Part shown: positions 37,707 to 38,421 of the stretch, one piece after another
How positions within the stretch are numbered: the first letter of the stretch is position 1
Layout: each line of letters begins with the position of its first letter
Source: a virus
Lineage: Duplodnaviria > Caudoviricetes
IMG/VR virus record: IMGVR_UViG_3300024423_000001
Location: 1 to 63,851 of that record
Length of the DNA stretch: 63,851 bases
Direction: 5' to 3' (one strand)
The notes under the pieces: model-generated
The model's database searches: none
What the model was told of the DNA's origin: nothing
What the model saw: only the letters and a program-made list of their open reading frames with translations
Translations under genes and position numbers: made by a program

Positions 37707-38400
37707 AACGGGAGAAATGAGGAGAATCGAATTAGATTCTGGGGAGATTGAATTCTTGTATACTCGTTGTGGGTTTACGAAACGGGAAATTGCTCAAAGG
37801 TTAGGAGTCAGTTTCAGCACTATAAAGCGGGCGTTCCAGCGGTTTGGGATTCTCACCAATCCTCATTACAGGAGGCGACCAAAGAAGTCTCGTCGGATAA
37901 GCGAAGTCGCAAGCAAGCGAATGAAGGAGAGGTGGGAATTGGAGCGGGACAGAATGCTTGAGGTTGCAAGGCAGGCGAGTACGTTTTATAAGGGTAGAGC
38001 ACCTTGGAATAAGGACCTGTCGAAAGAGGTGAGCGCTAAGGTTAAACTTGCTGCTCTTAAGCGAAGCATTAGAATGGGACCTGTCTATATTTCTGAGGAG
38101 TATAGACAGAAGAGATCGGAAGCTGCTAAGGGACGTAATAATCCGAACTGGCGAGGTGATATTTCGTGCTTGCCTTACGATCCCTGTTTCAATAACGATC
38201 TTAAGCGAAAGATTAAGGAGAGAGATGGCTACAGATGTCAAGTCTGTGGCGTGACAGAAGAAGAGTCATTAGCTCGTGGACATGGTTATCTTGTGGTCCA
38301 TCATCTCGATGGTAATAAGCAAAACTCTGATCCCCAGAATCTAATAACTTTGTGCAATAGTTGTCATACCCGATGGCATCGTAGTCACTCCCGTGAACAA
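37707..38400 (+). mobile_element. Bulge-helix-bulge (archaeal-type) intron in capsid mRNA, 694 nt
   Basis: CGTCGTTA-GTTC-ATA-ACGGGAG pairs with CTCCCGT-GAAC-AAA-TAACGGCG; canonical cleavage restores the frame. Confidence 0.92.
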
Positions 38401-38421
38401 ATAACGGCGTTCCGATCATAG
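37717..38421 (+). CDS. Intron-encoded HNH homing endonuclease (HTH, NUMOD3-like motifs, HNH)
   Basis: CQVCG…VHHLDGNKQN…NLITLCNSCH; GRNNPNWRG. Confidence 0.92.
   Translation: MRRIELDSGEIEFLYTRCGFTKREIAQRLGVSFSTIKRAFQRFGILTNPHYRRRPKKSRRISEVASKRMKERWELERDRMLEVARQASTFYKGRAPWNKDLSKEVSAKVKLAALKRSIRMGPVYISEEYRQKRSEAAKGRNNPNWRGDISCLPYDPCFNNDLKRKIKERDGYRCQVCGVTEEESLARGHGYLVVHHLDGNKQNSDPQNLITLCNSCHTRWHRSHSREQITAFRS

Follow-up and report, generated by a model that had tools for sequence, protein, structure and literature searches.

How does an endonuclease gene end when its reading frame runs out of the intron that carries it? The question is raised by the major capsid gene of a complete 63,851-bp virus record bearing direct terminal repeats (IMG/VR record IMGVR_UViG_3300024423_000001); this whole stretch is called the window below. 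The capsid gene is interrupted by a 694-nt element nearly filled by a gene for an HNH endonuclease with an N-terminal helix-turn-helix (HTH), and the HNH frame has no stop codon inside the element. A preliminary description of the sequence had suggested that this open reading frame (ORF) may be completed on the circularised intron. A different reading is favoured here, with a probability of roughly 0.6: the capsid gene of an archaeal-type tailed virus would host a mobile intron nearly filled by an HTH-HNH gene that overruns the 3' splice site, and a working enzyme would be specified by the pre-mRNA and also by the circle. The features concerned are given below; P0001 is a relative of the capsid protein (373 aa; 86-87% identical) and L001 is its DNA.

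36842..37706, + strand: major capsid protein exon 1 (PF17236 SU10_MCP, E 2.7e-07; ATG 36842 aligns with the start of P0001)
37707..38400, + strand: predicted bulge-helix-bulge intron, 694 nt, absent from L001 (fold, motif scan and shuffles)
37717..38421, + strand: HTH and HNH homing-endonuclease ORF, 234 aa when unspliced (PF01844, E 3.4e-06, above the cut-off; HTH_23)
37707..37751, + strand: stretch that gives 14 extra codons and TGA only across a ligated circle junction (translation of window slices)
38401..38654, + strand: major capsid protein exon 2 (homology to P0001/L001)

The interruption of the capsid gene

In P0001 the sequence ...GGFVVST-Y-NNVPIIA... is uninterrupted, and the order of genes downstream of the capsid gene is the same in L001 and in the window. 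The capsid frame of the window, for which the ORF list also offers an upstream TTG at 36821, ends at TAA 37706-37708, a stop made of the last exon base and two intron bases. It picks up again at 38403 (NGVPIIASRHVQ...) and terminates at 38654. Across the junction the window protein reads GGFVVSS, then a Tyr composed of T (37706) and AT (38401-38402), then NGVPIIA. The conserved Tyr is restored only when these bases are joined, and therefore 694 nt have to be removed (37707-38400 or, equivalently, 37708-38401). This ambiguity of one base changes neither the mRNA nor the circle, and the borders assumed in the preliminary description, 37707..38400, are those that the homology to P0001/L001 demands. 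The element is thus present in one and absent from the other of two loci whose capsid proteins are 86-87% identical.

The RNA around this junction was predicted to fold into the following motif.

37693..37700, + strand: outer helix h, 5' strand, in exon 1; pairs with 38402-38409 (8 bp, one G-U) in the minimum-energy and centroid folds
37701..37704, + strand: central helix H, 5' strand (GTTC); pairs with 38395-38398 (GAAC), 4 bp
37705..37707, + strand: 5' three-base bulge with the 5' splice site (cut after 37706 or 37707); most of the exon-1 stop codon lies inside it
37708..37714, + strand: inner helix h', 5' strand (ACGGGAG); pairs with 38388-38394 (CTCCCGT), 7 bp
38388..38401, + strand: 3' half of the motif, within the HNH frame (inner helix 38388-38394, central helix 38395-38398, bulge 38399-38401, splice site after 38400)
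38402..38409, + strand: outer helix, 3' strand, in exon 2; pairs with 37693-37700

This is an hBHBh' structure as the motif of this intron class is defined in section 7 of PMC4344496, with a 4-bp central helix, two 3-nt bulges on opposite strands, an outer helix of 8 bp and an inner helix of 7 bp. When 791 nt were folded with ViennaRNA, the minimum-energy and centroid folds each contained exactly this structure. A scan of the genome, on both strands, for such motifs with halves up to 3 kb apart returned 3256 candidates. By a score of Watson-Crick minus G-U pairs, the capsid motif was the sole top candidate (17; runner-up 15); when all pairs were counted, G-U included, it had 19, tied with ten other listed hits, and two were higher (20 and 21). 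None of the other candidates in the window matches a split gene. The register of the motif had been fixed beforehand by protein homology, and its score at that register was reached by 0 of 20,000 flank shuffles. The cuts required by homology fall at equivalent positions in both bulges, after the second or the third base, and rebuild the in-frame Tyr codon; the usual cut of a bulge-helix-bulge is after the second bulge base. The exon bases that L001 has at the outer- and central-helix positions would fail to pair; the exon parts of the motif would thus travel with the intron. Read from its sequence, the segment 37707-38400 in the capsid gene is a real and unusual intron of the archaeal bulge-helix-bulge type. 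According to section 7 of PMC4344496 and the corresponding part of PMC7714728, introns of this class are cleaved by a splicing endonuclease and circularised by a ligase; the circularisation assumed in the preliminary description is in keeping with this class behaviour.

Three other kinds of element were tried and rejected. A group I intron is not borne out: Rfam Intron_gpI matched nothing in 37000-39200 at E values up to 10, the ORF fills 684 of the 694 nt and leaves 10 non-coding intron bases, and the intron closes with A where a G would be expected. An intein does not fit a capsid frame that is stopped by TAA 37706-37708 and an HNH gene that lies in a different frame. A 7-nt direct repeat, ATAACGG, occurs at 37705-37711 and 38401-38407; its copies are 696 nt apart, two bases off the functional 694-nt junction. 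As the target-site duplication of a transposon this repeat gives an unusable excision register, for deleting 696 nt keeps the TAA and shifts the frame.

Related capsid genes also show signs of interruption. In L082, whose capsid protein is 55% identical, an 81-nt in-frame insertion (L082:137-217) is read straight through in the protein of the gene caller. Cutting at a relaxed motif (2 + 4 + 6 bp) would remove precisely the segment that homology calls for and restore NMV|YGKK; 1 of 20,000 shuffles attained the score of this motif. At L082:1109-1587 the capsid frame diverges beyond RPTQYF, and behind it lies an HTH-NUMOD3-like ORF that runs off the contig, probably a second endonuclease-bearing intron, at a third insertion site. 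The relative P0003 stops at the site of the window, while P0002 and P0004 diverge at the same L082 site, after RPTQYF; these three proteins look truncated, at two sites, and in sequence they fit the same intron picture. The loci of HNH relatives were examined as well, 86 in all: 80 of at least 290 confirmed in IMG/VR, and 6 from single-protein scans of IMG/VR and GTDB genomes. Nothing convincing was found among these 86 by way of a motif bracketing the HNH gene. The best of the 80, L052 (score 16) and L074 (score 15), were set aside as false positives, each being an HNH gene that stands free between intact ORFs.

Among the virus's own genes no match was found to PF01974 or PF01139, the families searched for a splicing endonuclease and RtcB, and so host enzymes would be required. 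In a curated phage collection the capsid protein matched nine records, and all nine are archaeal tailed viruses (one Methanofastidiosa virus and eight Haloarcula-virus records). The matches of the large terminase (TerL) are mixed, comprising Thermus phages together with haloarchaeal and Altiarchaeum viruses, and the neighbours of NrdD are bacterial or viral; both are uninformative on the host.

The endonuclease frame and its two ends

From ATG 37717 the HNH frame contains no stop before 38400, and it meets the 3' splice site on a codon boundary, CAA 38398-38400 being the complete last intron codon. Unspliced RNA is read as ...REQ ITAFRS and then TAG 38419-38421, the last seven codons, stop included, lying in exon 2. 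On a ligated circle the frame passes from 38400 into 37707 and is read as NGRNEENRIRFWGD, then TGA 37749-37751, which yields 242 aa instead of 234 aa. The open frame, its codon-boundary end and both tails had been put forward in the preliminary description and were reproduced by translation. The codon-boundary coincidence is a 1-in-3 event and has no weight alone. Since 694 is not a multiple of 3, the frame shifts at the circle junction and no endless rolling-circle frame arises.

The idea of completion on the circle stands only in part. In the excised linear intron the HNH frame is stop-less and only circularisation closes it, but such closure is not needed, as the pre-mRNA provides a stop 21 nt into exon 2. 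These first 21 nt of exon 2 are doubly read, once for the capsid and once, in the other frame, as ITAFRS plus TAG. The TAG arises from the conserved capsid codons Ile-Ile-Ala, and the intron-less L001 has it too; whatever is inserted in this register would therefore meet a stop seven codons later.

The protein itself has the marks of an HNH homing endonuclease: an HNH motif with catalytic and zinc-binding residues, in an intervening sequence that not all close relatives share. In 17 homologues HH, N and two CxxC pairs are invariant, and all are kept here (H195, H196, N208, C174, C177, C213 and C216). In a model built with AlphaFold2 (AF2) the HNH core, residues ~150-220, has a predicted local distance difference test score (pLDDT) of 89-98; the N-terminal DNA-binding half is lower, with pLDDT <50 at residues 1-3, 12-18, 47-61 and 114-123. 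Sequence and fold searches of the PDB with the endonuclease gave weak, generic HNH matches only. The profile of the 17 homologues aligns the protein to residue 219, nine residues short of the junction (228 residues are intron-encoded), so that the conserved domain is complete before the junction and homology picks neither tail. Scored without any tail, the 228 intron-encoded residues reached 115.2 bits; adding the tail from exon 2 left this at 115.2, and adding that from the circle gave 115.0. The need to complete the ORF, implied by the preliminary description, thus falls away, the HNH domain ending at residue 219 of 228 and scoring the same with either tail or none.

Three weak hints favour the linear tail. 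The AF2 model predicts a terminal helix, residues 226-233, that crosses residue 228|229 (pLDDT 72-76). In a MAFFT alignment the linear tail E-Q-I-T-A-F is set against E-K-I-K-Q-F of the closest homologue, P0089, with Ile and Phe in common, and falls on the C-terminal hydrophobic pattern of the homologues; the circle tail starts with Asn-Gly and lacks this pattern. The exon-1 stop, TAA 37706-37708, lies in the 5' bulge, 8 nt upstream of ATG 37717.

As the catalytic domain is finished ahead of the junction, the unspliced pre-mRNA is predicted to specify a working endonuclease, with the ITAFRS tail. As far as its frame goes, the HNH gene does not require translation of the circle. Most likely the ORF does no more than overrun the splice site, and active enzyme would be specified by either RNA form. 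The last 13 intron bases are bound to form the 3' strand of the motif, and the ORF would simply pass through them. The bulk of the enzyme would come from the unspliced transcript: ribosomes that finish the shortened capsid frame at TAA 37706-37708, inside the 5' bulge, may re-initiate 8 nt further on, at ATG 37717, and reach the TAG in exon 2. The bases ahead of this ATG form the inner helix, and the end of the HNH frame coincides with the 3' half of the motif and the outer helix. Ribosomes on either end of the ORF would block formation of the motif, and HNH translation and splicing would be mutually exclusive on any one molecule, an exclusion that would keep endonuclease output low. The tail would be functionally near-neutral. 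After splicing, the intron would be circularised like others of its class (PMC4344496 section 7; the part of PMC7714728 on these introns); the circle, with its closed frame, could also be translated, while the linear excised intron could not terminate the frame. For group I introns, a section of PMC3984707 views an in-frame stop behind the upstream exon as aiding intron folding and describes ORFs that overlap core sequence as tightly controlled.

Several observations weigh against this reading. Profile scoring cannot tell the two tails apart, and the likeness of the linear tail to the homologues amounts to 2-3 residues and could be chance. The only Shine-Dalgarno-like bases ahead of ATG 37717 are contained in the 5' strand of the inner helix (37708-37714); their spacing is poor and they are sequestered in both RNA forms. 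If splicing is fast, as the capsid gene needs, the excised intron would become the abundant template, and there only the circle has a stop. To our knowledge, the endonucleases of archaeal rRNA introns cannot use translation of the pre-RNA. I-DmoI is attributed to the intron circle in the relevant passage of a review (PMC11724312). An archaeal host is suggested by the capsid relatives (9/9) and by the splicing motif itself; TerL and NrdD are silent on the host. The runs holding the locus, four of them listed, are labelled hydrothermal vent metagenomes, and none of the four is RNA; no joint across the intron was seen in these four DNA runs.

A further possible start was noticed: GGGGAG 37741-37746 lies 9 nt ahead of an in-frame TTG 37756, just past the TGA of the circle read, and TTG 37756 is a possible alternative HNH start, better spaced than ATG 37717.

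The alternative that survives best is the one proposed at the outset, namely that the excised circle is the main or only messenger of the endonuclease; it is nevertheless regarded as doubtful. The capsid transcript would be spliced quickly, ligation of 38400 to 37707 would close the frame after 14 codons, and the circle would be the physiological messenger, with a frame terminated only by circularisation of the RNA and with the ITAFRS form as a minor or regulatory isoform. The frame geometry described above is as this requires, the intron class is circularised, and efficient capsid splicing would leave abundant excised intron. The account of the D. mobilis intron in the 2024 review (PMC11724312) has the circle encoding a 194-aa endonuclease, I-DmoI, and does not state that the frame crosses the junction, as the preliminary description had it; the same review allows internal initiation on circles by bacterial-type ribosomes. 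On the other side, the pre-mRNA already has a stop, and the circle tail adds nothing to the profile score and places Asn-Gly, without hydrophobics, where the C-termini of the homologues conserve them. The bases ahead of the ATG are tied up in the 7-bp helix, and a circle offers no translation from upstream by which this helix could be opened. None of the four runs listed with the locus is RNA, and no second example was met among the 86 HNH-relative loci. If true, this would be natural junction-spanning translation of a circular RNA in archaea.

It is improbable that the endonuclease gene is a decaying passenger without useful expression, in which an internal stop was lost by drift and neither tail matters. 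Decay is common among homing endonuclease genes after fixation, the N-terminal half is modelled at low confidence, and the nearest homologue is 54% identical over just 37% of the length. Against decay, the frame is open across 684 of the 694 intron bases, every invariant catalytic and zinc-binding column is retained, the intron is polymorphic between the window and L001, as expected of a recently mobile element, and near-identical HNH fragments occur in X4, a run of another study.

That there is no intron, and that a free-standing HNH gene splits a capsid gene whose pieces are made separately (295 aa, and 65 aa from TTG 38457) or which is dead, is very improbable: the fetched relatives, L052 and L074 for example, often have an HNH gene standing free between phage genes, and exon 2 does hold a TTG-initiated 65-aa ORF, but a separate exon-2 product would lose ~18 residues including family-invariant Tyr, Pro and Ile columns, removal of exactly 694 nt restores the conserved Tyr codon, chance would not be expected to give a perfect motif in that register (0/20,000 shuffles), and the 81-nt insertion of L082 has a relaxed motif that also cuts at the homology junction (1/20,000).

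Genome surroundings and other occurrences

The window encodes a set of head genes (large terminase, portal, Mu-F-like protein, prohead protease and the SU10_MCP-family major capsid protein) and of replication and repair genes (family B DNA polymerase, NrdD, ERCC4 nuclease, Cas4-like nuclease and ATP-dependent ligase). The region 22000-24600 is AT-richer (GC 0.43), the GC skew switches sign there and the gene blocks diverge from it, with replication genes on the minus strand at one side and structural genes on the plus strand at the other. An 877-aa protein (29680-32313, + strand) has an ATP-dependent DNA ligase domain at residues 137-327, directly behind which Hint / intein N-terminal families match weakly, none reaching its cut-off (NCBIfam E 1.4e-4; Pfam Hint_2 E 1.1e-3); this ligase may contain an intein. 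Downstream of the capsid and head genes, at 39491-41523 (+ strand), two adjacent ORFs are both conserved in L001. The first, 39491-40537, resembles glycosyltransferase group 1 families of Pfam below their cut-offs, and its partner is 40528-41523.

In run X4, which comes from another sample and study and is labelled hydrothermal vent, short contigs match the HNH gene at 37757-37907 and 38030-38180, with 1 and 5 differences. Run X3 contains fragments of the protease gene and of capsid exon 1 that are identical to the window. In the species-genome collection the only relatives of the HNH protein found are L245, L246 and L247, all three in Nanoarchaeota / Woesearchaeota (DPANN) assemblies, a placement that gives a bare hint on the gene pool or host.

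Significance and comparison with known systems

No intron of this kind in an archaeal virus or capsid gene, and none with an HNH endonuclease, came to light in a literature search. Protein-spliced archaeal introns are known from tRNA, rRNA and one cellular coding mRNA, cbf5. If the present intron is real, archaeal viruses would express their most abundant protein via the tRNA-splicing machinery of the host, and homing endonucleases would have entered this intron class more than once. Gene callers would truncate such capsid genes, as P0002, P0003 and P0004 appear to be. The pre-mRNA and the circle encode distinguishable C-termini, so the question of the circle can be decided by experiment, and the locus would be a built-in reporter for translation of archaeal intron circles.

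The archaeal rRNA introns are the first term of comparison. Bulge-helix-bulge introns of archaeal rRNA (the D. mobilis 23S intron with I-DmoI; Pyrobaculum) carry LAGLIDADG homing endonucleases. The present element is like them in having a bulge-helix-bulge motif, in belonging to a protein-spliced type and in being nearly filled by a homing endonuclease ORF. The rRNA introns are excised and circularised, with the circle proposed as messenger (PMC11724312; see also the literature cited in PMC3326292), and the element belongs to the same class. Unlike them, the host gene is here a translated viral structural gene, so that the pre-mRNA can also be a messenger; the enzyme is an HNH protein with an N-terminal HTH, not a LAGLIDADG protein; and the ORF extends beyond the 3' splice site to a stop within the exon.

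The cbf5 pre-mRNA intron of Crenarchaeota, as presented in the sections of Watanabe 2002 and Yokobori 2009 (PMC2738675) concerned with it, is likewise a bulge-helix-bulge intron in a coding sequence whose removal restores a conserved residue. In the corresponding text of Yokobori 2009 and Schwarz 2020 (PMC7714728), cbf5 is the sole reported coding-region intron of the class, and in that of the latter a Haloferax case in a 5' untranslated region is the only other mRNA example. The cbf5 introns are short, ORF-less and cellular, whereas the present one has 694 nt and is viral, mobile and endonuclease-bearing.

The phage group I introns with HNH genes are similar in lifestyle. I-HmuI of SPO1 is one HNH endonuclease of a phage group I intron. 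Another is I-PfoP3I of cyanophage Pf-WMP3, by the description available of it also an HNH homing endonuclease of a mobile intron in an essential virus gene, and in such introns the ORF may overlap structural RNA, as here (a section of PMC3984707). Unlike the phage group I introns, the element in the window has no ribozyme match, has 10 non-coding intron bases and ends in A instead of G, and its splicing must depend on host proteins.
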